Notes: generated by a model not told the origin, from the letters alone. A DNA stretch of 32,000 nucleotides from Phycisphaera mikurensis NBRC 102666 (GCF_000284115.1 NC_017080.1:930001-962000); one strand, 5' to 3'. Positions 1 to 31,845 are shown, counted from the stretch's first letter. Numbers and translations: made by a program.

Positions 1-2
1 CG

Positions 3-1241
3 ATGGTGGGCGAGCTCGCCCCCACCGAGCGGGCGAAGGCGCTCTCGCCGCTGCTCAACGAGTACCGCGACAACGCCCGGGCGAACGGCCACGACTACGC
101 CGCGCTGCAGGCGATGTGCGTGCTCGGCGTCGAGCTGTACTACGTGGAGGATCCGGCCACCGGCCGCCGCCACGTGGTGAACCAGGCCGACCACGCCGTG
201 CTGGTCGGGGGCCTGTCGCCCGCGGAAGCCGACGAGAAGATCGCCGCCATGGCCGACCTCGCCGGCACGGGGAGCGCCGTGGGACGCCCGGCCCGCGAGC
301 TCGCCGACGCCGCCTCGGCCGGCGCGTGGCGGGCGGTGGAGCAGCTGCCCAGCGGGCGGAAGCTGCCCGGGGGCCGGTTGCACGACGGCAGCACGCTCTA
401 CACGCTCAGCCAGACCGAGGCGATCGACACCGGCATCGCCGAGGCCGAGGCCCGCACCGAGGCCGACCTCCAGGCCCTGCTCAATGCCGCCTCGGTGAGC
501 ACCGTCGGGCAGACCTGGAGCGAGGCCCTCGCGATGTTCCTGACCAACCCCTTCGTGCGGATGGGCCTCATCGCGATCTTCGGCATCGGCCTCTTCGTGG
601 AGATGCTCGCGCCGGGCTTCGGCCTCGCCGGCGGCGTCGCCCTCCTTGCCTTGGCCGCGCTGATCGGGGCGCCGCTGCTGGTGGGCCTCTCGGAGATCTG
701 GCACATCGGGTTGATGGTGATCGGGGTGGTCATGATCGTGATCGAGCTGCTCGCCACGCCCACCTTCGGCCTGATGGGCATCGTCGGCGTGGGCGCCGTG
801 CTCGCCGGGCTGGTGCTGTCGACCGTGCCCAGCTCCGGCGGCGGCCCGGTGCCGCTGCCCGCCCCGGGCACCGGCGGCCGCCTCGCCTCGGCCACGATCG
901 CAACGCTCTTGGCCTTCGTCGTCACCGGCTTCGCGTCGCTGGGCCTGATGAAGGTCTACGGCCGCGTGCCCGGGCTTTCCCGCCTCGTGCTCGGCGACGC
1001 GCCGGCGATCGACGCCCGCTCTGCGCCCCCGGGCCCGGACGCGGACGGCGCCGCGGACCGCGGCCCGGCCGTCGGTGAAACCGGCACGGTCCGCGGCGGC
1101 GGCCTCCGCCCGTCGGGCTCGATCGCCATCGGCGACCGCTGGATCGACGCCGTCTCCGCCGGCGGCTTCATCGAGGAAGGCACCGCCGTCACCGTCGTCG
1201 AGGTCGCCGGCAACCGCGTGGTGGTGGAAGCGGCGGCCTGA
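3..1241 (+). CDS. NfeD-family membrane protein (long form), 5' end outside the window
   Basis: The ORF is open to the window edge. A central block of hydrophobic helices (FVRMGLIAIFGIGLFVEML, LLVGLSEIWHIGLMVIGVVMIVIELL, LMGIVGVGAVLAGLVL) is followed by a C-terminal OB-fold-like NfeD signature (GETGTVRGGGLRPSGSIAIGDRWIDAVSAGGFIEEGTAVTVVEVAGNRVVV). GC3 is high in this frame. Confidence 0.7.
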   Translation: MVGELAPTERAKALSPLLNEYRDNARANGHDYAALQAMCVLGVELYYVEDPATGRRHVVNQADHAVLVGGLSPAEADEKIAAMADLAGTGSAVGRPARELADAASAGAWRAVEQLPSGRKLPGGRLHDGSTLYTLSQTEAIDTGIAEAEARTEADLQALLNAASVSTVGQTWSEALAMFLTNPFVRMGLIAIFGIGLFVEMLAPGFGLAGGVALLALAALIGAPLLVGLSEIWHIGLMVIGVVMIVIELLATPTFGLMGIVGVGAVLAGLVLSTVPSSGGGPVPLPAPGTGGRLASATIATLLAFVVTGFASLGLMKVYGRVPGLSRLVLGDAPAIDARSAPPGPDADGAADRGPAVGETGTVRGGGLRPSGSIAIGDRWIDAVSAGGFIEEGTAVTVVEVAGNRVVVEAAA

Positions 1242-19340: not shown

Positions 19341-20462
19341 TCAGACCGCGTCCCGCAGCGTCAGGTTCTTCCCGTACTCGCCGGTCTCGAAGAGGTGCAG
19401 CTTGTCGGGGTCCAGGAAGAGCTTCACGGCCGTGCCCTCCTCGATGACCTCCGCCTTCACGCGGGCGACCAGGCGGCCGCCGCCGGCAACCGAGACGAAC
19501 ATGTCCATCATGTTGCCCAGCGGCTCGACCACGTCCAGCTCGCCGTCGATGGCCATGTCCTCGCGGTTCGCCTCGGCCGTCGGGTGCAGCTCCAGCCCCT
19601 CGGGCCGGATGCCCAGCACGACCTCCTGGCCGACGTGCTGCTGAGCGACCTCGCCGTGGTGGCCGTCGAGCACCACGCGGCCGGCGTCGCTCTGGAAGAC
19701 CGCGCGGCCGTCCTCGGCGACGATCCGCCCGTCGATGAAGTTCATCGGCGGCGTGCCGAGGAAGGCCGCGACGAACCGGTTGACCGGCTGGCGGTACACG
19801 CCCAGCGGCGTGTCGCACTGCTGGATGTGCCCGCCGGACATGACGACCACGCGGTCGCCGAGGGTCATCGCCTCCTCCTGGTCGTGCGTCACGTAGATCG
19901 TGGTGGTCGACAGCCGCTTGTGGAGCCGCTTGAGCTCCGCCCGCGTCTCCACCCGCAGCTTCGCGTCGAGGTTCGAAAGCGGCTCATCGAAGAGGAAGAC
20001 CGAGGGGTCGCGGACGATCGCCCGGCCCAGGGCGACACGCTGCCGCTGGCCACCCGAGAGCGCCTTGGGCCGCCGCTCCAGCAGCTCGGTGATGCCGAGG
20101 ATCTTCGCCGCGTCCCGCACCCGCTTGTCGATCTCGACCTTCGGGAACTTCCGCAGCTTCAGCCCGAAGGCCATGTTCTTGTACACCGTCATGTGCGGGT
20201 ACAGGGCGTAGTTCTGGAACACCATCGCGATGTCGCGGTCCTTGGGGGCGACGTGGTTCACCACGCGGCCGCCGATGGAGATCGTGCCGCCGGTGATGTC
20301 TTCGAGGCCCGCGACCATCCGCAGCGTCGTGGACTTGCCGCAGCCCGAGGGCCCGACCAGCACGAGGAACTCGCCGTCGTTGATGTGGAGCGAGATGCCG
20401 CGGACCGCGGTCACGTCGCCCTCGTAGGTCTTCACCACGTCCTGGATCTGTACGTCTGCCAA
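19341..20462 (-). CDS. ugpC: ABC transporter ATP-binding protein, MalK/UgpC/MsmX family (sugar-type importer ATPase)
   Basis: Walker A GPSGCGKST, Q-loop, signature LSGGQRQRVALGRA, Walker B VFLFDEPLSNLD, and a C-terminal TOBE/regulatory domain. I put the start at TTG (complement of 20460-20462), giving M-ADVQIQDVVKTY like family members. The upstream ATG at 20558 is the alternative. No permease or binding-protein gene is adjacent. The symbol is tentative. Confidence 0.85.
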   Translation of the reverse strand: MADVQIQDVVKTYEGDVTAVRGISLHINDGEFLVLVGPSGCGKSTTLRMVAGLEDITGGTISIGGRVVNHVAPKDRDIAMVFQNYALYPHMTVYKNMAFGLKLRKFPKVEIDKRVRDAAKILGITELLERRPKALSGGQRQRVALGRAIVRDPSVFLFDEPLSNLDAKLRVETRAELKRLHKRLSTTTIYVTHDQEEAMTLGDRVVVMSGGHIQQCDTPLGVYRQPVNRFVAAFLGTPPMNFIDGRIVAEDGRAVFQSDAGRVVLDGHHGEVAQQHVGQEVVLGIRPEGLELHPTAEANREDMAIDGELDVVEPLGNMMDMFVSVAGGGRLVARVKAEVIEEGTAVKLFLDPDKLHLFETGEYGKNLTLRDAV

Positions 20463-20595
20463 AAGAGAGTCTTCCGAAGGAGGAGAGGAACTGCCCGCGT
20501 TTCGCGGCGGGCCCAAAGGGCACCCACCGCACGCATCGCTGCCCGCGTCCGCGGGCAAGCCGCAAGGCTATCAGCCCGGGTCGGGCTCGCCGGAT

Positions 20596-20641
20596 CCGCG
20601 GACCGTCGGCTCCGGAGCCTCTCGAGACCGACGGTCCGCGG
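20596..20641. repeat. 46-bp palindromic element, copy C (best copy); possible ruvX terminator
   Basis: CCGCGGACCGTCGG (20596-20609) and CCGACGGTCCGCGG (20628-20641) form a perfect 14-bp stem with an 18-nt loop, which equals 10-bp core arms separated by 26 nt. It lies between the ruvX stop and the ugpC start. There is no U-tract. Confidence 0.75.
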
Positions 20642-20709
20642 CGTCGGGGTCATCTCGGACGCCGCTGCCCAGCGGGCGCGTCGCTCGGCCCCGCGTCGAG
20701 GTCCGGCCC

Positions 20710-21120
20710 TCAATCCGTTGCAAAGTACCGCTGCAGCAGCATGACCGCCGCCAGTCCGTCCCGCCGCGTCTTCTTCTGCTTGTGCGTCAGCCCCGACCGG
20801 CCCATCGCCTCGTCCGCTTCCAGCGAGCTCCGCCGCTCGTCCACCAGGTGCACCGGCACGCCGAACCGTTCCGCCGCCTCCGCCGCGAACGCCCGCGCCC
20901 GCCTCGCCGCCTTGCCCGCCGACCCGTCCATGTGCAGCGGCAGGCCCAGCACCAGCGCGTCGGGCGTCTCCCGCTCGACGATCCGCGCGAGCCGCGTCCA
21001 ACGCTCCGGCCCCGGCGGCGCCACGACCGCCGGCAGCGGCGAAGCGATCCCCGTCGCGTCGTCCCCCAGCGCCAGCCCCGTCCGCTTGTTGCCGAGGTCG
21101 ATGGCGAGGAAGCGCGGCAC
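20710..21120 (-). CDS. ruvX: Holliday-junction resolvase-like nuclease RuvX (YqgF)
   Basis: 136 aa from GTG (complement of 21118-21120): VPRFLAIDLGNKRTGLALGDD...LVLGLPLHMDGS...VHLVDERRSSLEA...QKKTRRDGLAAVMLLQRYF. The YqgF signature D-x-G-x-K-R-x-G is at the N-terminus. The longer 711-aa track ORF is a chimera with the antisense of the RHS gene. Confidence 0.88.
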   Translation of the reverse strand: MPRFLAIDLGNKRTGLALGDDATGIASPLPAVVAPPGPERWTRLARIVERETPDALVLGLPLHMDGSAGKAARRARAFAAEAAERFGVPVHLVDERRSSLEADEAMGRSGLTHKQKKTRRDGLAAVMLLQRYFATD

Positions 21121-21168
21121 CGCGGAGACGGTATCCGCGGCGTTGAAGGTCCATTCGAAAGGGTAGAG

Positions 21169-23313
21169 TTGCGACACCTTCTCCCGGCCATCCTCGCCCT
21201 CCGGCCGCTCGTGATCACCCACACCGACATCCGCCGCCACCGGCCCACGCTCTTGATCGGCCCGCGGGTGGGGGCCCAGGGCGAGCCCTTCCGCGCCACC
21301 TTCAGCATCACCCGCAGCACCGCGTCGCGAAACCACGACATGCTCAAGTTCCTCTTCGGGGTGGAAGAGGAAGGCACGTACAACGTCCTCACGCTCTCGC
21401 ACAAGGGCGGGAGCCCGAGCGCGCCTTCGGGCAGCCGGCTCGACGACGCCTCCGGCGTGGGCGTCGCCGGCACCCGCACCGCCGCCAACGCCGTCAGCAC
21501 CCCGAACCCCAGCGACCGGGTCTGGGTCCGCGTGGCCTCCGACGGCGCCGCCGTGACCGCCAAGATGCTCCTCGACAACACCGGCCCGCCCAGCGAGGCC
21601 GCCTGGTCCGGCGCCGGCGAGGCGTACCGCAGCACCGCCTTCCCGATGAACGGCGGGCGGGTGGGCTTCCGCTCTGCCTACGGCGTCGCCTTCGTCCGGC
21701 ACTTCACCCTCGAGACCGACCACGACAACGACGGTTCCTGGACCCGCGAGTACGACGCCCTCATCGACCACCCCGGCGGCCACGCCACGATCCGGTACGA
21801 GCACGACGCCGCGGGCAACCTCACCTTCGACGGCGTGTTCTCCTACGCCTACGACGCGGTCGCCGATCCAGGCGACCGAAGGCTGGCGCCTCCGAGGCTG
21901 AAGCCAGCTTCCTTGTCCATCCGGCTGGTCAGCGTCCGCAACGCCTACCGCGAGGCTGGTGCCAGCCAGAGCGTGCAGGAGGGCTCGGTCGTCACCGCCA
22001 TGGCCTACGACGGCCTGGGCCGGCGGACCACCCGAGCCGTCCAGAACAGCGGGAACCTCGACTTCACCCACCACGCCTACTTCGACGGCCAGCGGCAGGT
22101 CGAGGAACGCAACGGCTCGGACCTGGTGCTCCGTCAGCAGGTCTGGGGCCTGGACTACATCGACGAGCTGGTGAGCACTTCGCTGAACTTCGACCCCACC
22201 GACACCACCGAGAGCGTCTGCGAGCGGCACTTCTACGCCCTCCACGACAGCCAGTACAACATCCTGGGCATCGTCGCCGCCGGCGGCGCCCTGGTGGAGC
22301 GATACGAGTACACGCCCTACGGACAGAGGCAGGTCTACGGGAGTGGGTGGCTGCCATACGATCTCGATGGCAACGGGGTGGTGGATCAAGCAGACGCCGA
22401 CGTCGTAGACGCAGGGCGGTACGGGCCCGACGATTCGTCTTCCTACATCGCGGATGTATCGGGAGACGGTCAGGTCGACGACAACGACTACTACCCCGTC
22501 CTCTACAGCGGAGCCTACCCGTTCCTGGGGCTCCAGATCCTGCCGCAGAACGACCTGAAGGCGTACACACCGCGGCTGGGTAGCTTCGCCGGTCGTCTCG
22601 CCTCCGAAGGTGCCGGCAGCAGCTTGAACCCCTTCGGCCACCAGGGCCTCCACCACGACGAGGCCACCGGGCTCATCTACAACCGGGCACGCATGCTCCA
22701 CCCCACGCTGGGCAGGTTCGTGCAGAGAGATCCGCTGGGGTATGTGGATGGGGCCAATCAATATCTCTACCACCCAGCTCTTCATGGAGGAACTGATTGG
22801 ACAGGGACCCGGCGAGTTCCTCCATATTCGGTGCCTACTTACCAAGCGAGATCTACGGCGGAGGATGCTGGAAGCAATTCACTTCAGCCAGGTGAGTGGG
22901 GAGGTAATCGAGACGCAATCCGTCACTGCGTTCTGATGTGCGAGTTAGCGAAAGACTTCGGGCGTCAGGGTGCTATCGACTTCGGACATGCGTACGAGAC
23001 GGATAACGAGCCGACTCTGCCCGACGGAGCTCGAGGCGTTCAAGGATACGCAGACTATACAGCTTTTGTGCTACACGATCGGGCGATGGATCTACACAAC
23101 AATGAGGTGGGAGCTTCGATTGGCGAGGCTCTGAGTGACCTGCAAGACCTCGTTCCGGAATGCAGCCGAACTTGCGCAGACGCATGTGCCGATGCCTTGG
23201 ACAACGGAGCCCTGCTCGTAAATGTAGAAAACGGATATAAACTAGACTGGCATCCTGGTCAAGCTCCATGGGAACGTCCTCCGACGATTCCCGATGTTAA
23301 TGTGTTCCCCTAA
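21169..23313 (+). CDS. RHS/YD-repeat polymorphic toxin, copy 1 (jelly-roll-like N-domain, YD repeats, dockerin/EF-hand-like insert, RHS core end, unique C-terminal domain CT1)
   Basis: YD repeats are present (YEHDAAGNLTFDG, YAYDA, MAYDGLGRRTTR, YEYTPYGQ), and the core terminus is GLIYNRARMLHPTLGRFVQRDPLGYVDGANQYLY. After about 22740 GC drops sharply and the sequence is unrelated to copy 2. The start is uncertain: TTG 21169 (used), GTG 21211 or ATG 21340. The frame stays open upstream only because it is antisense to ruvX. Confidence 0.8.
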   Translation: MRHLLPAILALRPLVITHTDIRRHRPTLLIGPRVGAQGEPFRATFSITRSTASRNHDMLKFLFGVEEEGTYNVLTLSHKGGSPSAPSGSRLDDASGVGVAGTRTAANAVSTPNPSDRVWVRVASDGAAVTAKMLLDNTGPPSEAAWSGAGEAYRSTAFPMNGGRVGFRSAYGVAFVRHFTLETDHDNDGSWTREYDALIDHPGGHATIRYEHDAAGNLTFDGVFSYAYDAVADPGDRRLAPPRLKPASLSIRLVSVRNAYREAGASQSVQEGSVVTAMAYDGLGRRTTRAVQNSGNLDFTHHAYFDGQRQVEERNGSDLVLRQQVWGLDYIDELVSTSLNFDPTDTTESVCERHFYALHDSQYNILGIVAAGGALVERYEYTPYGQRQVYGSGWLPYDLDGNGVVDQADADVVDAGRYGPDDSSSYIADVSGDGQVDDNDYYPVLYSGAYPFLGLQILPQNDLKAYTPRLGSFAGRLASEGAGSSLNPFGHQGLHHDEATGLIYNRARMLHPTLGRFVQRDPLGYVDGANQYLYHPALHGGTDWTGTRRVPPYSVPTYQARSTAEDAGSNSLQPGEWGGNRDAIRHCVLMCELAKDFGRQGAIDFGHAYETDNEPTLPDGARGVQGYADYTAFVLHDRAMDLHNNEVGASIGEALSDLQDLVPECSRTCADACADALDNGALLVNVENGYKLDWHPGQAPWERPPTIPDVNVFP

Positions 23314-23389
23314 GAGGTCTTGTAAGTTCCGTGCAGGCGATTGGCCTAACGTAATCCTATGGCAGGATTCAAAAGTTTGGATGTAAGGC

Positions 23390-24001
23390 ATGATGTTTTT
23401 TAAAGGGGTCAGGGCAACGCTTGTACTTGCGGTTATATCTATCTGTGTTGCTGGAACAGCCTCGGTTTCCTGTTCCAATCATGGCGATCGCGCATCCGAG
23501 GCGAAGATTGATGTGACCACGAAGCGGGAAGATTGGAGCAGTTGGGCTCTACGCAGGGTTGTGATCGCGTCAGAGACCCCGGTTGACGAATCGGGCTCTG
23601 TCGGTTTCTCTATCGTGCAACCACGCAATTCTTTTGCACCTCAGGGCATAGGGATCTATCGTAGATTGAGCTGGGCGGAAAGCTACGAGAACCTCAGGAT
23701 TTTTGCAGCTATCAAGACTTACCGGGACTTGCGGTTGTCGCTCCATGTTGAAGGTGACCGAGATTCCGAGGGCGAGTATGGCAGCCTTGATTTTCGGATC
23801 CCTTTCCAGTGGGGATCAGCAGTGGTTGAAGTTAAGCGTGAGGAACGTTTAATCCTCGCTGAGTGCCAGGTCCCTTCTGATGTAGAATCCGTACTATTAT
23901 GGCTCCAGGTGGAAGACCCACAACCTGCAACATCGCCCAAACTAAACCAGAACGAGGGCGTTGACTTCGCCATATCCGGTCTAATCATCGTACTTGACTA
24001 A
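23390..24001 (+). CDS. secreted beta-rich protein, candidate cognate immunity for CT1
   Basis: 203 aa in AT-richer DNA contiguous with CT1, starting 76 nt after the RHS1 stop. It has an N-terminal signal peptide (MMFFKGVRATLVLAVISICVAGTASVSC). I recognise no family. The immunity role is inferred from position only. Confidence 0.5.
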   Translation: MMFFKGVRATLVLAVISICVAGTASVSCSNHGDRASEAKIDVTTKREDWSSWALRRVVIASETPVDESGSVGFSIVQPRNSFAPQGIGIYRRLSWAESYENLRIFAAIKTYRDLRLSLHVEGDRDSEGEYGSLDFRIPFQWGSAVVEVKREERLILAECQVPSDVESVLLWLQVEDPQPATSPKLNQNEGVDFAISGLIIVLD

Positions 24002-24147
24002 GAAGCTGTTTCAAAACTCCCCATGATCATCCGCCGGTGGCAGATGGTGAGGCAGGCGAGGTCGTGCATGCCCTGAAAGTGGCTTCCGGTCCGCTCGTAG
24101 CAGACCTTCAACCGGCGGTCGTTCCCGAACCATGCCAATGCCCGCTC
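23998..24147 (-). pseudogene. 3'-terminal remnant of an IS5-family (IS427/IS1031-like) DDE transposase gene
   Basis: The minus-strand translation PERALAWFGNDRRLKVCYERTGSHFQGMHDLACLTICHRRMIMGSFETAS* matches the conserved C-terminus of IS5-family transposases (ER..aW....RRL...YE......f..lA...i..RR). Everything upstream is replaced by the GAAGCAAGGGG array. A possible IS end, GAAGCTGTTTCAAAAC, follows a CTAA at 23998-24001. Confidence 0.6.
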
Positions 24148-24149
24148 GG

Positions 24150-24241
24150 GAAGCAAGGGGTCAGGGAAGCAAGGGGAAGCAAGGGGTCAGGGAAGCAAGG
24201 GGGAAGCAAGGGGAAGCAAGGGGTCAAGCCCCTTGCAGAGG
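24150..24241 (+). repeat. iterated half-hairpin array plus terminal complete hairpin (left end of RAYT element 1)
   Basis: Six head-to-tail copies of GAAGCAAGGGG, with or without TCAG, at 10-17 bp periodicity. The last copy is completed to GGAAGCAAGGGG-TCAAG-CCCCTTGCAGAGG (24212-24241). That hairpin has an 8-bp stem at 24216-24223 / 24229-24236 and a 5-nt loop. Confidence 0.85.
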
Positions 24242-24306
24242 TGCTATGGTGCCGTCGCCGAGTCGCCTCCCGCTCCCCCGCTCTCTCGCACCCTCAACCG
24301 CTCCCC

Positions 24307-25398
24307 ATGGCCCGCTCCCTCCGCCACCAGATCCTGCCTGATGCCACCTGCGTGGTTCATGTTGTGTCGAAGATCTCGCGGTCGCTTCACTTGCTGGTGC
24401 CCGATGAGGATCGTGCCGGCGCCGGCGCCGGTGCCGTTGGCGACGCGGCCGAGCACCCCGACCTCCGCAAGGAGCTGCTGCTGCAGCGGCTGGAGACGCT
24501 GGCGGAGCAGACCTCGATCTCGGTGTGCGGGTTTGCGGTGATGGGCAACCACGTCCACCTGATCCTGCGGCGGGACAAGGAGGAGGCCGCGGCGTGGCCG
24601 GCGGCGGAGGTGGTGGGGCGGTGGCTTGCGTTGCACCCCAAGCGCAACCGGGCGCGGCAGCCGGTGGAGACGCCGGAGGAGGACGTGGCGGCGATGGTGG
24701 CGGACGAGGGACTGGTGGAGACGCTGCGTGCGAAGCTGTCGAGTGTCTCGCAATTCATGAAGGACCTCAAGCAGCGGACCGCGGAGGCGGTGAACAAGCT
24801 GGAGGGCCGCGGCGGGCGGCTCTGGGACGGGACGTTCAAGAGCAAGCTGATCGAGGACCAGGAGCAGCTGGTGGCGACGATGGTGTACGTGGACCTCAAC
24901 CCCTTCGCGGCGGGGGTGTGCGAGACGCCCGAAGAGGGCCGCCACACCTCGCTGGCGGGGCGGCTGGGGCGGGACGAGCCGGCGGGGGAGGTGAGCAAGC
25001 CCGCAGGATCCGCGGACCGCGACCGGGAGGAGGCCTCGGAGGCCGGCGGTCCGCGGGTTGGTCTGCGGTTGCCACGGCGGAGGTCCAGCGGGGCCTGGCT
25101 GCGGCCGCTGGACGAGTCGGCCAAGCGGGCGCGGGAGCGTGGGCAGCGGCGGCACCCGCGAGGGCGGGCGGGGCTCGAAGCGGAGGCCGCGGGAACGGTG
25201 AGCCCGGGGCTGTCGCTGCGGGTCTACCTGCGGATCCTCGACGCGGTCAGCCGCAAGCTGCGGGCGGGCAAGAAACGCCTTGCGGCGGGCATGGCAAGCG
25301 TCTTCGAGCGGCTGAACCTGGACGCCGACGCGGTGGTCGGGCGGGTGCTGGCGATGGCGCAGCGGGACGGGCTGGCGGTGGCGGGCCGGGGCAGCTGA
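24307..25398 (+). CDS. REP-associated tyrosine transposase-like HUH protein (Y1 transposase / IS200-like, COG1943), copy 1
   Basis: 363 aa from MARSLRHQILPD. Family blocks are present: VVHVVSKISRSLHLLVPDEDR, the HUH motif in AVMGNHVHLILRR, GRLWDGTFKSKLIEDQEQL, and the catalytic-Tyr block MVYVDLNPFAAGV. A C-terminal extension of about 150 aa is Arg/Ala-rich. Confidence 0.8.
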   Translation: MARSLRHQILPDATCVVHVVSKISRSLHLLVPDEDRAGAGAGAVGDAAEHPDLRKELLLQRLETLAEQTSISVCGFAVMGNHVHLILRRDKEEAAAWPAAEVVGRWLALHPKRNRARQPVETPEEDVAAMVADEGLVETLRAKLSSVSQFMKDLKQRTAEAVNKLEGRGGRLWDGTFKSKLIEDQEQLVATMVYVDLNPFAAGVCETPEEGRHTSLAGRLGRDEPAGEVSKPAGSADRDREEASEAGGPRVGLRLPRRRSSGAWLRPLDESAKRARERGQRRHPRGRAGLEAEAAGTVSPGLSLRVYLRILDAVSRKLRAGKKRLAAGMASVFERLNLDADAVVGRVLAMAQRDGLAVAGRGS

Positions 25399-25818
25399 AC
25401 CGAGCTCGCCGGGGCCTGGCTACCTCGCAGGAGGCGTTGCTTCTTCCGAACGGATCCGCCGGGCTCGCCGGGGCCTACCCGGGCCTGCCCGGGCCTGCCC
25501 GGGCATCGCCGGGCGAGGGCTGTTGCGGTGACTGCGCCAGCCGCTTTGCAACGCAAGGCGGGCTCTTGTCCGGATCAGCGTCGATCCCCGAGGCGGCGTC
25601 GCCGGGCTCCGGCCCGCTCAGCGTTGCGAAGCGGCTGACGCTGTCAGCCCCGCCGGGATCTCGGTGGGCCTGCCTGGGAAGCTGCTCGGATCGTGGGGTG
25701 GCACACCGGAGATGCACGGCCTCGTGGTGATGGCGACGGATCGATCGGTGAACGCCGGGTTCTCGTTTCCGAGCCCGCGGCTCATCCGCTCGTCGGCCGG
25801 TTCCTTACCCTCTCCCTC

Positions 25819-26154
25819 ATGCCGTCCCGCCTTCCAGCAGCCCTGCTGCTCGTTCTCCCGCTGCTGCTCCCGGCCTGCGTTGCGCCCATGTACGTGAACA
25901 TCCCCTCGGAGGGCGGCATCGCGGCGAGCGATCCGAACAGCTTCAACGTGCGGGACGTGGTGGCCGACTCGATCGCGGCGGCGGTGGAGCGGGAGCCGCT
26001 GGAGGGCGTCTACGAGATCTTGCTGCCCGAGGGCACCACGCAGGGGCAGCATGGGGTGAGGCCCCTTGCGTTTGTGTCGCCGAGGTCGATGGCGAGGAAG
26101 CGCGGCACCGCGGAGACGGTATCCGCGGCGTTGAAGGTCCATTCGAAAGGGTAG
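25819..26154 (+). CDS. lipoprotein gene fragment fused across the module junction (probably truncated / chimeric ORF)
   Basis: MPSRLPAALLLVLPLLLPAC (signal peptide with lipobox) is followed by about 60 plausible residues. From about 26055 the ORF reads through the junction and across the antisense of the ruvX start fragment (..GVRPLAFVSPRSMARKRGTAETVSAALKVHSKG*). Confidence 0.35.
   Translation: MPSRLPAALLLVLPLLLPACVAPMYVNIPSEGGIAASDPNSFNVRDVVADSIAAAVEREPLEGVYEILLPEGTTQGQHGVRPLAFVSPRSMARKRGTAETVSAALKVHSKG
26079..26108 (-). pseudogene. ruvX 5' fragment (codons 1-10), identical to 21091-21120
   Basis: GCCGAGGTCGATGGCGAGGAAGCGCGGCAC is identical to the start of intact ruvX, and identity continues through the 48-bp spacer into RHS copy 2. 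To the left the sequence is unrelated and begins with CCCCTTGC (26062-26069). Confidence 0.85.
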
Positions 26155-26156
26155 AG

Positions 26157-28331
26157 TTGCGACACCTTCTCCCGGCCATCCTCGCCCTCCGGCCGCTCGT
26201 GATCACCCACACCGACATCCGCCGCCACCGGCCCACGCTGCTCATCGGCCCGCGGGTGGGGGCCCAGGGCCAGCCCTTCCGCGCGACCTTCAGCTTCACC
26301 CGCAGCACCGCCTCGCGGAACCACGACATGCTCAAGTTCCTCTTCGGGGTGGAAGAGGAAGGCACGTACAACGTGCTCGCATTCTCCCACAAAGGCGGGA
26401 GCCCGTGGGCGCCTTCAGGCAGCCGGCTCGAGGACGCCTCCGGCATCAGCGTCGCCGGCACCCGCACCGCCGCCCACGCCGTCAGCACCCCCAACCCCAG
26501 CGACCGGGTCTGGGTCCGCGTGGCCTCCGACGGCGCCGCCGTGACCGCCAAGATGCTCCTCGACAACACCGGCCCGCCCAGCGAGGCCGCCTGGTCCGGC
26601 GCCGGCGAGGCGTACCGCAGCACCGCCTTCCCGATGAACGGCGGGCGGGTGGGCTTCCGCTCTGCCTACGGCGTCGCCTTCGTCCGGCACTTCACCCTCG
26701 AGACCGACCACGACAACGACGGTTCCTGGACCCGCGAGTACGACGCCCTCATCGACCACCCCGGCGGCCACGCCACGATCCGGTACGAGCACGACGCCGC
26801 GGGCAACCTCACCTTCGACGGCGTGTTCTCCTACGCCTACGACGCGTGGAACCGGCTGGTCAGCGTCCGCAACGCCTACCGCGAGGCTGGTGCCGGCCAG
26901 AGCGTGCAGGAGGGCTCGGTCGTCACCGCCATGGCCTACGACGGCCTGGGCCGGCGGACCACCCGAGCCGTCCAGAACAGCGGGAACCTCGACTTCACCC
27001 ACCACGCCTACTTCGACGGCCAGCGGCAGGTCGAGGAACGCAACGGCTCGGACCTGGTGCTCCGTCAGCAGGTCTGGGGCCTGGACTACATCGACGAGCT
27101 GGTGAGCACTTCGCTGAACTTCGACCCCACCGACACCACCGAGAGCGTCTGCGAGCGGCACTTCTACGCCCTCCACGACAGCCAGTACAACATCCTGGGC
27201 ATCGTCGCCGCCGGCGGAGCCCTCGTGGAGCGGTACGAGTACACGCCGTATGGGCAGCGGCAGGTCTACGGGAGCGGAACCCTCAAGCTCGACGTCAACG
27301 GCGACGGGTCGCAGGACCAGGACGACACTGCGTTGGTGCAGGCGCTGGTGAACGATCCAACCCACCCCGACCACCACCTCGCCGACATTTACAGCGACGG
27401 GCAGATCAACCAGAACGACGTGAGCGCGATGGGCGAGATCTACGCCTTCGCCTACTACGACGGCCCCGAGGCCAACCACCTCGACCGCAGCGACCTCAAG
27501 CGTCTGACGCCCCGCCTCGGCACCACAAGGGGTCCCGCGTACGCAGCCTGGCTCACCGCTCCGGTCTACACCACGCTCAACCCCTTCGGCCACCAGGGCC
27601 TCCACCACGACGAGGCCACCGGGCTCATCTACAACCGGGCACGCATGCTCCACCCCACGCTGGGGAGGTTCGTGCAGAGAGACCCGCTGGGCAATCGCGT
27701 CTCATGGAGATCAGTGAGGCCGCGGTTTACCCGGAATCGAGAGGATGGAAGGACGATGATGGTTGTCTCTCGAGCTGAGGACATTGCTTACGTCCTGTAT
27801 CCACAACTACAATATTTTGCTGGGATGTCGCTGTACGAGTATGCGGCGAGTTCTCCGAGAAGCCTTGTTGATCCCACGGGCCTAGTACCGTGGCCCGCGA
27901 TCGTGGTGGGCACATGTTTAAATGAATCGACTGATCGATGCCAGATAATCTGGCACGATTACGATAATCCGAAGGATGGGGGCGATTTTGAGCTGCTGCG
28001 CCCCGGCGAAAGAAGCGGATCGAAGGATCGGTGCGACTACGTTTATCTGAATGGCGAGTGGTATAAGAATCGTTCTCGCTTGGTGTACGTAGCGGATTCT
28101 CCACTCGACCCATATGTGAAGTACAAGAAAACGCGGGGAGGGAAATATCTAAAGTCACCTTTATCTCCTGTAAGTCGCGCTCCGGATGGTCCTTGGTATC
28201 CAGGCAGAACTGGCAAGAAGCCCTCTAAGACTATCTGCGAAAAGTATTGCGAGTGCAATCTCTTGAGCGACCCCGCTCATCAAGGACCAGATTGTGATGA
28301 CGACTGCGTGAAGAGATGTGAGGATCTCTGA
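26157..28331 (+). CDS. RHS/YD-repeat polymorphic toxin, copy 2 (same body as copy 1, different dockerin-like insert, unique C-terminal domain CT2)
   Basis: About 95-100% identical to copy 1 over 26157 to about 27200 and again over 27579-27691 (..NPFGHQGLHHDEATGLIYNRARMLHPTLGRFVQRDPLG). It then enters AT-richer unique sequence containing a second core-end motif, GMSLYEYAASSPRSLVDPTGL, and a Cys-rich tail. Start options are TTG 26157, GTG 26199 and ATG 26328. Confidence 0.8.
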   Translation: MRHLLPAILALRPLVITHTDIRRHRPTLLIGPRVGAQGQPFRATFSFTRSTASRNHDMLKFLFGVEEEGTYNVLAFSHKGGSPWAPSGSRLEDASGISVAGTRTAAHAVSTPNPSDRVWVRVASDGAAVTAKMLLDNTGPPSEAAWSGAGEAYRSTAFPMNGGRVGFRSAYGVAFVRHFTLETDHDNDGSWTREYDALIDHPGGHATIRYEHDAAGNLTFDGVFSYAYDAWNRLVSVRNAYREAGAGQSVQEGSVVTAMAYDGLGRRTTRAVQNSGNLDFTHHAYFDGQRQVEERNGSDLVLRQQVWGLDYIDELVSTSLNFDPTDTTESVCERHFYALHDSQYNILGIVAAGGALVERYEYTPYGQRQVYGSGTLKLDVNGDGSQDQDDTALVQALVNDPTHPDHHLADIYSDGQINQNDVSAMGEIYAFAYYDGPEANHLDRSDLKRLTPRLGTTRGPAYAAWLTAPVYTTLNPFGHQGLHHDEATGLIYNRARMLHPTLGRFVQRDPLGNRVSWRSVRPRFTRNREDGRTMMVVSRAEDIAYVLYPQLQYFAGMSLYEYAASSPRSLVDPTGLVPWPAIVVGTCLNESTDRCQIIWHDYDNPKDGGDFELLRPGERSGSKDRCDYVYLNGEWYKNRSRLVYVADSPLDPYVKYKKTRGGKYLKSPLSPVSRAPDGPWYPGRTGKKPSKTICEKYCECNLLSDPAHQGPDCDDDCVKRCEDL

Positions 28332-28765
28332 TGCGGCCCGAACCTCAATCTTTAGCAGTTTCATTTTGGATGATGGTCGGCTGTCTCGCGGTTGTTATTC
28401 CATCAGCAATTTATAGCGGCCGAGAAGAACCTTTTTACGGCGTGCAGCCTGCGTGGGTATTCTTTTCTCAGATCGGTTCAGCAACCGGCGTCTTATTCGC
28501 GTCGCTCATCTCGGTCGTGTGCATTCCCTGGAGGCGCGTGTATGGAAACTATCGAGTACTTATCGCGTCAGTCGCTCTATGCATATCGAATCTCCTTGTA
28601 TCTGCATTAGGATGCTTCGTCGCTGCGACGTTTGTTGAGGACGTGAGGAACTATATTGCTATATTAGAGGCTCAAGATCTTACGTCGACCACCACGGAGA
28701 AGAAAGCTCATGGAGATCCGGGAGGGGAGAAACTCCCGCTTGTAGATATTGAGCGATCTCAGTAA
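28331..28765 (+). CDS. small polytopic membrane protein, candidate cognate immunity for CT2
   Basis: Its ATG overlaps the RHS2 stop (TGATG, 28329-28333). It is 144 aa with 3-4 hydrophobic helices (LAVSFWMMVGCLAVVIPSAIY, WVFFSQIGSATGVLFASLISVVCI, VLIASVALCISNLLVSALGCFVAATFV). Its low GC is contiguous with CT2. Confidence 0.6.
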   Translation: MRPEPQSLAVSFWMMVGCLAVVIPSAIYSGREEPFYGVQPAWVFFSQIGSATGVLFASLISVVCIPWRRVYGNYRVLIASVALCISNLLVSALGCFVAATFVEDVRNYIAILEAQDLTSTTTEKKAHGDPGGEKLPLVDIERSQ

Positions 28766-28775
28766 GCGAGCGTCA

Positions 28776-28874
28776 ATGCACAACCATACTTTCGACTTTG
28801 GCCTCCAATGGAGCCCCCGCCTCCTCCTCGGCGCCCTCACACTGCTTGCGCTCCCACCCGCGTCCGCCCAACTA
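28776..28874 (+). pseudogene. 5' fragment of a secreted-protein gene cut off by RAYT element 2
   Basis: MHNHTFDFGLQWSPRLLLGALTLLALPPASAQ looks like a signal peptide ending in an ASA-Q cleavage site. The reading frame then runs straight into the GAAGCAAGGGG array, which translates as nonsense (GSKGSRKQGVKEGEARGQ). Confidence 0.35.
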
Positions 28875-28980
28875 GGAAGCAAGGGGTCAAGGAAGCAAGG
28901 GGTCAAGGAAGGGGAAGCAAGGGGTCAGGAAGCAAGGCGGAAGCAAGGGCGGAAGCAAGGGGTCAAGCCCCTTGCAAGGG
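28875..28980 (+). repeat. iterated half-hairpin array plus terminal complete hairpin (left end of RAYT element 2)
   Basis: Six or seven copies of GGAAGCAAGG(G/C)G, with or without TCAA/TCAG, some degenerate (GGAAGGGG, GAAGCAAGGCG, GAAGCAAGGGC). The array ends in GGAAGCAAGGGG-TCAAG-CCCCTTGCAAGGG (28951-28980). Confidence 0.85.
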
Positions 28981-29045
28981 TGCTATGATGCTGTCGCTGC
29001 GTCGCCTCCCGCTCCCCCGCTCTCTCGCACCCTCAACCGCTCCCC

Positions 29046-30131
29046 ATGGCCCGCTCTCTCCGCCACCAGATCCTGCCTGACGCCACCTGCGTCGTCCATG
29101 TTGTGTCGAAGATCTCGCGGTCGCTTCACTTGCTGGTGCCCGATGAGGATCGTGCCGGCGCCGGTGCCGTTGGCGACGCGGCCGAGCACCCCGACCTCCG
29201 CAAGGAGCTGCTGATGCAGCGGATGCAGACCCTGGCGGAGCAGACCTCGATCTCGGTATGCGGGTTCGCGGTGATGGACAACCACGTCCACCTGATCCTG
29301 CGGCGGGACAAGGAGGAGGCCGCGGCGTGGCCGGCGGCGGAGGTGGTGGGGCGGTGGCTTGCGTTGCACCCCAAGCGGAATCGGGCGCGGCAGCCGGTGG
29401 AGACGCCGGAGGAGGATGTGGCGGCGATGGTGGCGGACGCGGGCCTGGTGGAGGCGCTGCGTGGGAAGCTCTCGAGCGTCTCGCAGTTTATGAAAGACCT
29501 CAAGCAGCGGACGGCCGAGGCGGTGAACAAGCTGGAAGGCCGCGGCGGGCGGCTCTGGGACGGGACGTTCAAGAGCAAGCTGATCGAGGACCAGGAGCAG
29601 CTGGTGGCGACGATGGTGTACGTGGACCTCAACCCCTTCGCGGCGGGGGTGTGCGAGACGCCCGAAGAGGGCCGCCACACCTCGCTGGCGGGGCGGCTGG
29701 GGCGGGACGAGCCGGCGGGGGAGGTGAGCAAGCCCGCAGGATCCGCGGACCGCGACCGGGAGGAGGCCTCGGAGGCCGGCGGTCCGCGGGTTGGTCTGCG
29801 GTTGCCACGGCGGAGGTCCAGCGGGGCCTGGCTGCGGCCGCTGGACGAGTCGGCCCAGCGGGCGCGGAAGCGTGGGCAACGGCGGCACCCGCGAGGGCGG
29901 GCGGGGCTGAAAGCGGAGGCCGCGGGAACGGTGAGCCCGGGGCTGTCGCTGCAGATCTACCTGCGGATCCTCGACGCGGTCAGCCGCAAGCTGCGGGCGG
30001 GCAAGAAACGCCTTGCGGCGGGCATGGCAAGCGTCTTCGAGCGGCTGAACCTGGACGCCGACGCGGTGGTCGGGCGGGTGCTGGCGATGGCGCAGCGGGA
30101 CGGGCTGGCGGTGGCGGGCCGGGGCAGCTGA
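29046..30131 (+). CDS. REP-associated tyrosine transposase-like HUH protein, copy 2
   Basis: 361 aa. It is near-identical to copy 1 except for a 6-nt indel (AGAGAGAV vs AGAGAV) and scattered substitutions. The HUH block (MDNHVHLILRR) and Tyr block (VYVDLNPFAAGV) are intact. Confidence 0.8.
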   Translation: MARSLRHQILPDATCVVHVVSKISRSLHLLVPDEDRAGAGAVGDAAEHPDLRKELLMQRMQTLAEQTSISVCGFAVMDNHVHLILRRDKEEAAAWPAAEVVGRWLALHPKRNRARQPVETPEEDVAAMVADAGLVEALRGKLSSVSQFMKDLKQRTAEAVNKLEGRGGRLWDGTFKSKLIEDQEQLVATMVYVDLNPFAAGVCETPEEGRHTSLAGRLGRDEPAGEVSKPAGSADRDREEASEAGGPRVGLRLPRRRSSGAWLRPLDESAQRARKRGQRRHPRGRAGLKAEAAGTVSPGLSLQIYLRILDAVSRKLRAGKKRLAAGMASVFERLNLDADAVVGRVLAMAQRDGLAVAGRGS

Positions 30132-30247
30132 ACCCGCAAGCGGCAGCGGCGGTCCCGCTGATCTACGACCGATCGCATCGCTGCCGGACCATCAAGCGTC
30201 ACCCGGAGCCCGATTCAGCGTTGGCGGAGAAGGTGGCAGCCACCAAG

Positions 30248-30330
30248 GGAAGCAAGGGGTCAAGCCCCTTGCAGAGGTGCTATAATGCCGTCGCCGAGTA
30301 GGAAGCAAGGGGTCAAGCCCCTTGCAGAGG
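30248..30330 (+). repeat. two orphan copies of the RAYT-element hairpin (no transposase gene)
   Basis: The 30-mer GGAAGCAAGGGGTCAAGCCCCTTGCAGAGG occurs at 30248-30277 and 30301-30330, and both copies are perfect. The first is followed by 21 nt of the RAYT leader (TGCTATAATGCCGTCGCCGAG). The second abuts the diverged ruvX fragment. Confidence 0.85.
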
Positions 30331-30333
30331 CCC

Positions 30334-30471
30334 GCGGGCCAGCCGCCGCCACCGCTCCGGACCCGGCGACGCGGCAGGTGCCGGCGGCGGGGAGGTGGTC
30401 CCGGGCGCGTCGTTGCCGAGCGCAAGGCCGTTCCGCCGGCCGCCGAGGTCGATCGCGAGGCAACGCGGCAC
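30334..30471 (-). pseudogene. diverged ruvX 5' fragment (codons 1-46)
   Basis: The minus-strand translation is VPRCLAIDLGGRRNGLALGNDAPGTTSPPPAPAASPGPERWRRLAR, against intact RuvX VPRFLAIDLGNKRTGLALGDDATGIASPLPAVVAPPGPERWTRLAR. My hand alignment gives 33/46 aa and about 103/138 nt. Homology stops at the hairpin copy ending at 30330. Confidence 0.75.
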
Positions 30472-30564
30472 GCGTGCGGGCGGAACGGGGCCGCCCGGGG
30501 ATCCTCTAGACTCCCGCAACCCGGGCCGGGCCGAGCCGGGCGCTGCCACCCCCACCGATCTTTT

Positions 30565-31845
30565 ATGCCTGAGAACTCCCCGCCGACCGCTCGCCTCGAC
30601 CTGCCCGAAGGGCCCATCGACCTGCCGATCGTTGTTGGCACCGCCGACGAGAAGTCGGTCGACATCTCGAAGCTCCGGGCCCAAACCGGCTACATCACGC
30701 TCGACGAGGGGTACCGCAACACGGGCAGCGTCAAGAGCGACATCACCTTCATCGACGGCGAGAAGGGCATCCTCCGCTACCGCGGCTATCCCATCGAGGA
30801 GGTGTGCGAGAACAGCTCCTTCATTGAGACGGCGCTGCTGCTGATCCACGGCGAGAAGCCGAGCAAGGAGTCGCTCTCGAGGTTCAGCGAGCGGCTGACG
30901 CACCACCAGATGATCCACGAGTCGGTGCGGCAGATGTTCGACGGCTTCCCGCCGACGGCGCACCCGATGGCGGTGCTCTCGTCGATGATCAACACGATCT
31001 CCTGCTTCCAACCGGCGATCATGAACATCGACGACGAGGAGGAGTTCGACGACACCGCGGCGATGCTGATCAGCAAGGTGCGGACGGTCGCGGCGGCCGC
31101 TTACAAGACCCAGATGGGGCATCCCATCATGTACCCGGATCCGAAGCTCACGTACTGCGAGAACTTCCTCCACATGATGTTCTCGCTCCCGCTGGGGCGG
31201 ATCGAGCCCGATCCGGACGTCGTGGAGGCGCTCAACCTCATCTTCATCCTGCACGCGGACCACGAACAGAACTGCTCGACGGCGACGGTGCGGATGGTCG
31301 GCTCCTCGGGGGCGAACCTCTTCGCCAGCTGCGCCGCCGGCGTCTGTGCCCTCTGGGGCCCGCTGCACGGCGGCGCGAACGTCGCGGTCATGAACCAGCT
31401 CGAGGAGATCCACAACAGCGACATCACGACGCGGAAGTACATCGACAACCTGAAGGCGACCAAGGGCAAGCTCTTCGGCTTCGGCCACGGCGTCTACAAG
31501 AGCTACGACCCGCGTGCGATGGTCCTCAAGAAGTCCGCCGACAAGGTGCTCGCGAAGCTCGGGGTCGACGATCCGCTGCTCGCGATCGCTCGCGAGCTGG
31601 AGGAGACGGCGCTCAACGACGAGTACTTCGTCAGCCGGAACCTCTATCCCAACGTCGACTTCTATTCCGGGATCCTCATGCGGGCGATGGGCATCCCCAC
31701 GAACATGTTCACGGTGATGTTCGCGATCGGCCGCATGCCCGGCTGGATCGCTCAGTGGTGGGAGGTCAACCAGCAGAAAAGCCGGATCTACCGGCCGCGG
31801 CAGGTCTACACCGGCGCCCGGGAGCGAGCCTGGAACGCCGGCTGA
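30565..31845 (+). CDS. gltA: citrate synthase (type II, hexameric-type length)
   Basis: 426 aa from MPENSPPTARLDLPEGPIDLPIVVG. Citrate synthase blocks are present: ILRYRGYPIEEL-like, LILHADHEQNCSTATVR, WGPLHGGANVAV, GFGHGVYKSYDPRA, and NVDFYSGI. The 81 residues upstream in the track ORF are not used. Confidence 0.93.
   Translation: MPENSPPTARLDLPEGPIDLPIVVGTADEKSVDISKLRAQTGYITLDEGYRNTGSVKSDITFIDGEKGILRYRGYPIEEVCENSSFIETALLLIHGEKPSKESLSRFSERLTHHQMIHESVRQMFDGFPPTAHPMAVLSSMINTISCFQPAIMNIDDEEEFDDTAAMLISKVRTVAAAAYKTQMGHPIMYPDPKLTYCENFLHMMFSLPLGRIEPDPDVVEALNLIFILHADHEQNCSTATVRMVGSSGANLFASCAAGVCALWGPLHGGANVAVMNQLEEIHNSDITTRKYIDNLKATKGKLFGFGHGVYKSYDPRAMVLKKSADKVLAKLGVDDPLLAIARELEETALNDEYFVSRNLYPNVDFYSGILMRAMGIPTNMFTVMFAIGRMPGWIAQWWEVNQQKSRIYRPRQVYTGARERAWNAG

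Follow-up and report, generated by a model that had tools for sequence, protein, structure and literature searches.

Tandem RHS toxin modules of Phycisphaera mikurensis form a mosaic in which a RAYT-like gene appears to mark the right-hand border of the toxin cassette

Introduction

RHS toxins diversify by the swapping of their C-terminal tips, but it is usually unclear what sets the distal limit of the exchanged stretch. In the classical enterobacterial Rhs elements the core is conserved and GC-rich and closes with a DPxG motif, after which come a low-GC variable toxin and its immunity gene; recombination has been proposed as the source of their diversification. Orphan C-terminal tips and H-rpt sequences have been described for these elements (PMC3032704), the tips carrying partial cores and standing in tandem downstream, in the company of a transposase-type element (PMC3032704, PMC3482391). 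The locus described here, located in a window of 32,000 nucleotides (the whole stretch of DNA analysed, ~72% GC) from Phycisphaera mikurensis, shares these traits, the toxin and immunity functions of its genes being predicted ones. It consists of two tandem modules, in each of which a 5'-truncated RHS gene, its C-terminal toxin, a presumed immunity gene, a REP-like hairpin array and a Y1-HUH (RAYT/IS200-like) gene follow one another in that order. It differs from the enterobacterial elements in that a Y1-HUH enzyme and hairpin repeats are found where the latter have the DDE-type H-rpt (ISAs1-type), and in that the RAYT-like gene is conserved across genomes as the right border; furthermore, there is no full-length rhs gene upstream, no context of type VI secretion system (T6SS), PAAR or VgrG genes was seen, and a dockerin-like insert is present in the core.

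The groups of RAYTs and their presumed domestication have been described previously (PMC5581495). With the E. coli RAYT TnpA_REP (PDB 4ER8) the protein encoded here shares the HUH and tyrosine motifs, the flanking of its gene by short GC-rich hairpin repeats, and paralogs which are diverged rather than identical and are under purifying selection. It differs in its length (360 amino acids (aa), including a C-terminal extension of ~150 aa), in the presence of at least six such genes in P. mikurensis, in its hairpins, which all lie on one strand and not in the inverted pairs typical of REP/REPIN sequences, and in its NCBIfam score (46-48 bits for NF047646, the cut-off of which is 80). The IS200/IS605 elements (IS608, ISDra2) likewise have a Y1-HUH fold and subterminal same-strand hairpins on both sides of the gene, but the present genes have no identical dispersed copies, no tnpB and no defined shared right end. 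In a comprehensive survey of polymorphic toxins (PMC3482391), transposases come up only briefly, in connection with URI nuclease domains, and dockerins not at all. In the searchable literature no report of a link between RAYT or IS200 and Rhs was found; the first-pass annotation of this DNA had likewise known of no description of the association.

Results

To compare the two modules, the window was aligned to itself by BLAST. The first-pass annotation, made from the sequence alone, had described near-identical blocks alternating with unrelated or strongly diverged ones, and the near-identical blocks were recovered, as four matches at 95.7-98.2% identity. Two of them make up the left arm (21075-21858 and 26061-26846, 96.4%; 21921-22343 and 26852-27274, 98.1%), the third is the RHS core end (22627-22739 and 27579-27691, 98.2%), and the fourth is the right arm, composed of the hairpin array and the RAYT-like gene (24149-25401 and 28891-30134, 95.7%). 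The left arm (plus strand, 21075-22343 in module 1 and 26061-27274 in module 2) starts at 21075 rather than at 21091 as first given, and runs to 22343; its first ~140 bp are not RHS body but the start of ruvX, which is read from the other strand, and a spacer of ~90 bp, after which the 5'-truncated RHS body follows. Its second copy, too, begins with ~35 codons of the ruvX 5' end. As had been proposed, self-BLAST detected no homology between the modules in the segments holding toxin, immunity gene and spacer (22740-24148 compared with 27692-28890), or in the DNA that follows the stop codon of either RAYT-like gene. The dockerin-like inserts within the RHS core (plus strand, 22344-22626 and 27275-27578) were indeed found to be strongly diverged, to saturation, with a synonymous divergence (dS) of 1.34 compared to 0.06 in the flanks, but they are not unrelated and remain homologous.

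Divergence along the modules is highly uneven. In the RHS arm dS between the copies is 0.063 (dN/dS 0.31, the differences being mostly synonymous) and in the RAYT-like gene it is 0.075 (dN/dS 0.20, both copies being intact), while the insert has reached 1.34, the toxin and immunity genes are unrelated, and a patch of 113 bp at 98% identity separates the insert from the toxins. Because of this pattern, recombination or gene conversion would be needed to account for the mosaic, which simple duplication followed by drift would not yield. The cassettes also stand out by their GC content, 0.52-0.53 (0.53 in toxin domain 1) compared to 0.69-0.73 in the arms. An assembly artefact, named by the first-pass annotation as a possible refutation, was not the source of the tandem, since a second, independent draft assembly (GCA_014207395.1, a contig of 215 kb) carries both modules within a stretch of 12,955 bp that matches at 100% identity.

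The link between RHS and RAYT genes is not peculiar to this locus, and the layout recurs in other Planctomycetota. An RHS core hidden Markov model, built from fetched loci, was run against 80 genome and 80 metagenome loci of the RAYT family; the genome loci were drawn from among the matches listed and held family members 29-40% identical, that is, distant relatives only. Enrichment was evaluated by a binomial test for RHS core ends within 3.2 kb upstream of the RAYT start and co-oriented with it. In the genome loci 7 of the 15 core ends lay 1.4-2.9 kb upstream on the same strand, where 9.8% would be expected from the share of surveyed strand-bases (p = 2.7e-4). All five core ends (four unique loci) of the metagenome loci, an independent sample, were in that position as well (p = 1.4e-4), bringing the pooled count in the 160 loci to 12 of 20. 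The enrichment anticipated by the first-pass annotation was thus non-random in both samples. The RHS-linked RAYT genes fall into three sequence clusters, and most follow full-length RHS genes of 1,500-3,200 aa. RHS genes were found in none of the three contexts of gammaproteobacterial relatives, which are located on chromids.

The succession of conserved, swapped and conserved segments was also observed between genomes, in one lineage. In loci L148 and L165, which belong to different genomes, the RHS bodies are 91% identical up to the core end, the toxins are unrelated (BLASTP E 4.6), and identity resumes, at 90-94%, with the RAYT upstream motif and the RAYT gene; the same pattern was seen at 75% between L022 and L148. 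The GC content of the cassette was lower than that of both the RHS body and the RAYT gene in 12 of 13 RHS-RAYT loci. The idea of a variable cassette held between two conserved arms consequently applies to the window and beyond it, and the RAYT-like gene appears to be the regular right-hand border of swappable toxin cassettes. The upstream motif, AAGGACAGGCATAATCCTTGA, is conserved ahead of distant RAYT-family genes in 31 loci (among L001-L169), often in tandem; the RAYT strand carries 70 of its 74 copies, and most copies are 0-600 nucleotides (nt) upstream. In L165 (1-3720) a 5'-truncated RHS module lies between copies of this motif, and the motif and the RAYT 5' end are triplicated.

Two further features of these loci were recorded. 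The upstream motif and the first ~80 RAYT codons are tandemly repeated two to three times in L165 (1-3720) and L148 (2300-2850 and 5560-5930), and many metagenome contigs (L090-L169) break off no more than a few hundred bases from the RAYT gene, as expected of an assembly-breaking repeat.

The gene content assigned at first was upheld by the family searches and structural models. The two RAYT-like Y1-HUH genes (plus strand, 24307-25398, 363 aa; and 29046-30131, 361 aa) encode proteins which are 97% identical, the first matching REP_Tyr_transpos at 4.6e-12, below the cut-off, and the second being 100% identical to an NCBI entry named 'transposase [Phycisphaera mikurensis]' (NBRC 102666). The Y1-HUH motif is complete, and H80, H82 and Y192 are invariant in 29 sequences. 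The AlphaFold2 (AF2) model of the second protein (pLDDT 78.6) has E. coli TnpA_REP 4ER8 as its top fold match (E 4.8e-5; TM score 0.68, target-normalised), followed by the ISDra2, IS608 and IS200 transposases. With purifying selection acting on it and the HUH and tyrosine residues retained, the gene looks functional. Its scores do not reach the curated families, as seen above for NF047646, and for Pfam Y1_Tnp they are 21-23 bits with a cut-off of 23. The RAYT-family genes of P. mikurensis are 43-97% mutually identical; the tandem described here is the only near-identical pair, all other paralogs being at most 58% identical, and several copies per genome, instead of a single one, were also found in other Planctomycetota. 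Near-identical dispersed copies with common defined ends, as in IS200/IS605, were not seen: only the array and the open reading frame (ORF) are common to the two copies, and since the homology between them stops 3 nt past the stop codon, no shared right end can be defined for the element.

Each RAYT-like gene is preceded by a REP-like array (plus strand, 24148-24263 and 28874-29002), and in module 1 the right arm begins at this array. The hairpin array of the first-pass annotation was found as a set of repeats, six tandem half-sites GAAGCAAGGGG, of which only the last completes a hairpin, CAAGGGGTCAAGCCCCTTG (-11 kcal/mol, z -2.4). The hairpin 19-mer occurs five times in the window, always on the plus strand (24217, 26050 with 3 mismatches, 28956, 30253 and 30306), where at most 0.1 would be expected by chance, and a further 63 kb of P. 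mikurensis DNA that was examined contained no copy. The degenerate copy and the ~10 nt after it (plus strand, 26050-26079) make up the joint between the modules, and two more REP units (plus strand, 30247-30330) abut a relic of ruvX. At the left border of the variable cassette, that is, the core end, neither a hairpin nor a RAYT upstream motif was found. Rfam detected no RNA family in 20000-31000. The REP unit 3' of the second RAYT-like gene contains a perfect TATAAT at 30266-30271, and the units 5' of the RAYT-like genes have TATGGT and TATGAT.

The RHS genes themselves are RHS1 (PSMK_08190, 700 aa, 21211-23313) and RHS2 (PSMK_08230, 710 aa, 26199-28331), both on the plus strand. As in RHS/YD polymorphic toxins, the RHS-associated core TIGR03696 scored 48.8 and 49.4 bits (cut-off 32.5; Rhs_assc_core 7e-13 in RHS1) and the YD repeats TIGR01643 17-21 bits (cut-off 15.8). 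Alignment shows that the shared part closes in both proteins at ..GRFVQRDPLG, encoded by the core-end patch on the plus strand; a second motif, DPTGL, is present in RHS2 only. The AF2 model comprises a beta-sandwich, ~165 aa of RHS-type hairpins (residues 150-315), the helical dockerin-like insert and a low-confidence toxin domain, and its fold matches, found for RHS2, are YenC, teneurins and T6SS Rhs proteins (E about 1e-6 to 2e-6). Both genes begin ~40-90 bp from ruvX sequence. RHS1 is N-terminally truncated relative to all homologues, the DNA 5' of the first RHS ATG resembles the interior of longer homologues, and residues 13-35 of RHS2 align from residue 100-745 in every longer homologue compared, so that the genes start in the middle of the family architecture. 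A full-length RHS shell has repeats over about 1000 aa or more and, N-terminally, a trafficking domain; here the repeats amount to only ~165 aa, and scans with Pfam and NCBIfam detected no PAAR/VgrG or signal domain. The truncated genes are presumed to be expressed. RHS1 alone carries a hairpin-rich, in-frame insert of 62 nt (plus strand, 21859-21920), which replaces 5 nt of a YD repeat and folds, as DNA, into two strong hairpins (-19.6 kcal/mol, z -2.3). The dockerin-like insert gave a weak match to Pfam Dockerin_1; this segment, an EF-hand pair, interrupts the RHS-associated core, and Dockerin_1 is similarly found in some homologues.

Beyond the core end the C-terminal domains of RHS1 and RHS2 are unrelated, and a small ORF of predicted immunity function lies directly 3' of each. 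Toxin domain 1 (plus strand, 22740-23313) belongs to DUF6973 (Pfam, 3.6e-11), whereas toxin domain 2 (27692-28331) matched no known Pfam family. The first small ORF (plus strand, 23390-24001, 203 aa) has a signal- or lipoprotein-like N-terminal sequence; the second (plus strand, 28331-28765, 144 aa) encodes a multi-pass membrane protein, and its start overlaps the RHS2 stop codon. Neither matched a family in Pfam, nor did the first in NCBIfam, and from their position both are presumed to confer immunity. Debris of an interrupted gene, claimed for both modules, was identified in module 1 only. It is a relic on the minus strand (23998-24156; ERALAWFGNDRRLKVCYERTG...), cut off by the REP array, and we take it to resemble the C-terminal end of IS5-type DDE transposases; Pfam gave no match. 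When the unique segments of the window were compared to all fetched loci, no matches were found, except for the pre-MLKF region, by which the truncation of the RHS genes was exposed.

The modules are located between ruvX (minus strand, 20710-21177, 155 aa; Pfam RuvX 1e-37, TIGR00250 5e-32), which is intact and the first ~35 codons of which are part of the duplicated left arm, and the gene of citrate synthase (plus strand, 30565-31845, from the annotation of the second assembly; 88% identical to that of a close relative). In this relative (RuvX 88% identical in aa, neighbouring genes 88-92% in nt) the two genes are divergent and only 92 bp apart. As they are adjacent there, the 9.3 kb separating them in the window can be regarded as accessory DNA. 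The ruvX 5' end is present three times: in the intact gene on the left, in the ~35 codons opening module 2, and in a copy of codons ~1-47 (minus strand, 30335-30474), in the ancestral position beside citrate synthase and collinear with the ruvX-gltA arrangement of the relative. This last copy is a decayed relic, because it is equally distant from both ruvX genes (74% to the intact gene and 73% to that of the relative) and is changed at conserved RuvX residues; the alternative that the intact ruvX was imported by the island was considered and found to be unsupported by these values.

Both novel joints (26079 and ~30335) sit ~10 nt 3' of REP hairpins and adjoin ruvX 5' fragments, and at the joint of modules 1 and 2 there is an imperfect microhomology of ~18 nt. 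A module could have been gained when a circular copy underwent a single crossover, or else through unequal crossing-over, and either would fit these joints. The spacer 3' of the first RAYT-like gene (plus strand, 25402-26049) is unique, with no match in module 2 or in any fetched locus. A lipoprotein-like ORF (plus strand, 25819-26154; signal peptide, ..LLLPAC..), truncated by the module joint, had no Pfam match and no homologue among the fetched loci. In the relative's locus (L170, 10972-11895 and 14322-14780) a RAYT-family paralog is located between ruvX and an ABC-transporter gene; an IS66 element interrupts it, and the locus is devoid of RHS genes. Its being an ortholog of the RAYT-like genes described here was rejected, as at 36-37% aa identity it is an unrelated paralog.

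Discussion

The explanation that we consider the probable one is that the cassettes were replaced by homologous recombination, with the RHS core end on one side and the resident RAYT-like gene on the other, in tandem orphan-type modules within an accessory region. The RHS core end (..GRFVQRDPLG) would serve as the left arm and the hairpin array with the RAYT-like gene as the right arm, and a double crossover in the two would exchange the low-GC toxin and immunity genes lying between them; a whole module would be added when a circular copy recombines in a single crossover, or when crossing-over is unequal, giving rise to the tandem pair. An exchange of this kind through both arms was already suggested in the first-pass annotation, and is supported as the best reading of what was observed, namely the mosaic with its uneven divergence, the accessory status of the region and an RHS-cassette-RAYT frame that is met again in other Planctomycetota, with recombination itself being inferred from the alignments.

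Several observations weigh against this explanation. No recombination event was observed directly. P. mikurensis yielded only these two RHS genes, both 5'-truncated and orphan-like, and hence no full-length partner which could receive orphan cassettes. The 3.2 kb limit of the enrichment test was set after the first data had been seen, the replicate sample keeping the same limit, and some of the RHS-linked loci are of common ancestry. Among the loci with an upstream flank of 3 kb or more, only ~13% show RHS linkage, and about 85% of the family copies do not stand next to RHS genes. The RAYT-like protein departs from RAYTs in being multi-copy and in the direct orientation of its hairpins. The two P. 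mikurensis paralogs of which the context was examined (P0004 and P0020) are lone genes among housekeeping genes, as are the nearest homologues in another genome (P0002, P0005 and P0007, 56-60% identical). Finally, none of the three nearest RHS homologues is followed by a RAYT gene, the positions being taken by an rve transposase, a tyrosine integrase, or no mobile-element gene; as these homologues precede other mobile-element genes, RHS loci may simply collect them. The nearest RHS homologue (P0043, 1098 aa; L087 3905-12067) is part of a tandem RHS pair without RAYT, and between the two genes lies an opposite-strand ORF of 358 aa belonging to no known family.

The last points are at the heart of the main rival explanation, a passive accumulation of IS-like genes in tolerant accessory DNA, which appears possible but doubtful. 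According to it, an IS200-like element inserted 3' of an RHS-immunity pair was copied by ordinary tandem duplication, and the toxins were swapped through the RHS core only, by the classical displacement of C-termini, in loci that tolerate mobile elements. Most family copies do stand among ordinary, varied and unrelated genes (AcrB, kinases, MacB), as do all five close paralogs and homologues named above, and the transposase-like relic of module 1 and the clusters of RAYT fragments in several loci would be in place in DNA of this sort. Against this explanation stand the bias in orientation and distance, replicated in two samples, and the purifying selection on the RAYT-like gene. Moreover, the border between conserved and variable DNA falls where the hairpin array begins in the window, and at the RAYT upstream motif in L148 and L165; from genome to genome the RAYT gene is kept along with the RHS body, whereas the cassette is a different one.

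An additional scenario assigns an active part to the protein. The broader proposal, that a branch of the RAYT/IS200 superfamily in Planctomycetota was recruited as a resident nuclease of RHS loci, where nicks in the distal hairpin array would bring about cassette replacement and tandem orphan modules, is in our view unlikely. Its more specific form, a domesticated transposase which nicks single-stranded DNA at its hairpins and thereby sets off exchange, excision or circularisation of segments that are bounded by hairpins and made up of an RHS fragment, toxin and immunity gene, in the service of toxin diversification, is to be regarded as quite unlikely. The catalytic residues are invariant and the fold is that of TnpA_REP; borders coincide with hairpins, and the two novel joints are located 3' of hairpins that are all on one strand. 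Furthermore, both RHS2 with its presumed immunity gene and the truncated RHS module of L165 have the RAYT hairpin or motif on either side, in direct orientation, and in several loci the upstream motif and the RAYT 5' end are tandemly duplicated. Against this stand the left border of the cassette, which has no hairpin, the small share of RHS-linked copies, and the microhomology at the module joint, which is compatible with illegitimate recombination; in addition, homologous recombination alone accounts for the mosaic. HUH excision of the toxin and immunity cassette by itself was rejected, as the core-end border carries neither of these signals, hairpin or motif.

Site-specific islands inserted in tandem at an attachment (att) site in the ruvX 5' end are hardly credible: the 30-bp core GCCGAGGTCGATGGCGAGGAAGCGCGGCAC is present three times (21088, 26076 and 30444) and bounds the modules, and the region is an insertion compared to the close relative, but Pfam, NCBIfam and the annotation revealed no integrase or recombinase besides the HUH gene in 20700-30500, for which reason such an island was rejected, and the repeats are not the short att cores of an integrase-type genomic island but an arm 1.27 kb long and 140 bp of decayed gene sequence, nor are the nearest RHS and RAYT relatives located at ruvX, bar the unrelated paralog (36% aa identity) on its other side.

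Under the two-armed replacement which we favour, the finding bears on a point that has usually been unclear in RHS toxins, the far end of the segment that is swapped. In P. mikurensis, as in several further planctomycete lineages, this end is marked by a RAYT-like gene which is conserved and has its hairpin array with it, and a two-armed frame for exchange is thereby provided. On the role of RAYT-type domesticated transposases in their hosts, a reproducible link with toxin cassettes offers a testable lead; should the RAYT-like protein turn out to be a resident nuclease of RHS loci, this would give a 'domesticated' HUH transposase a concrete host function.

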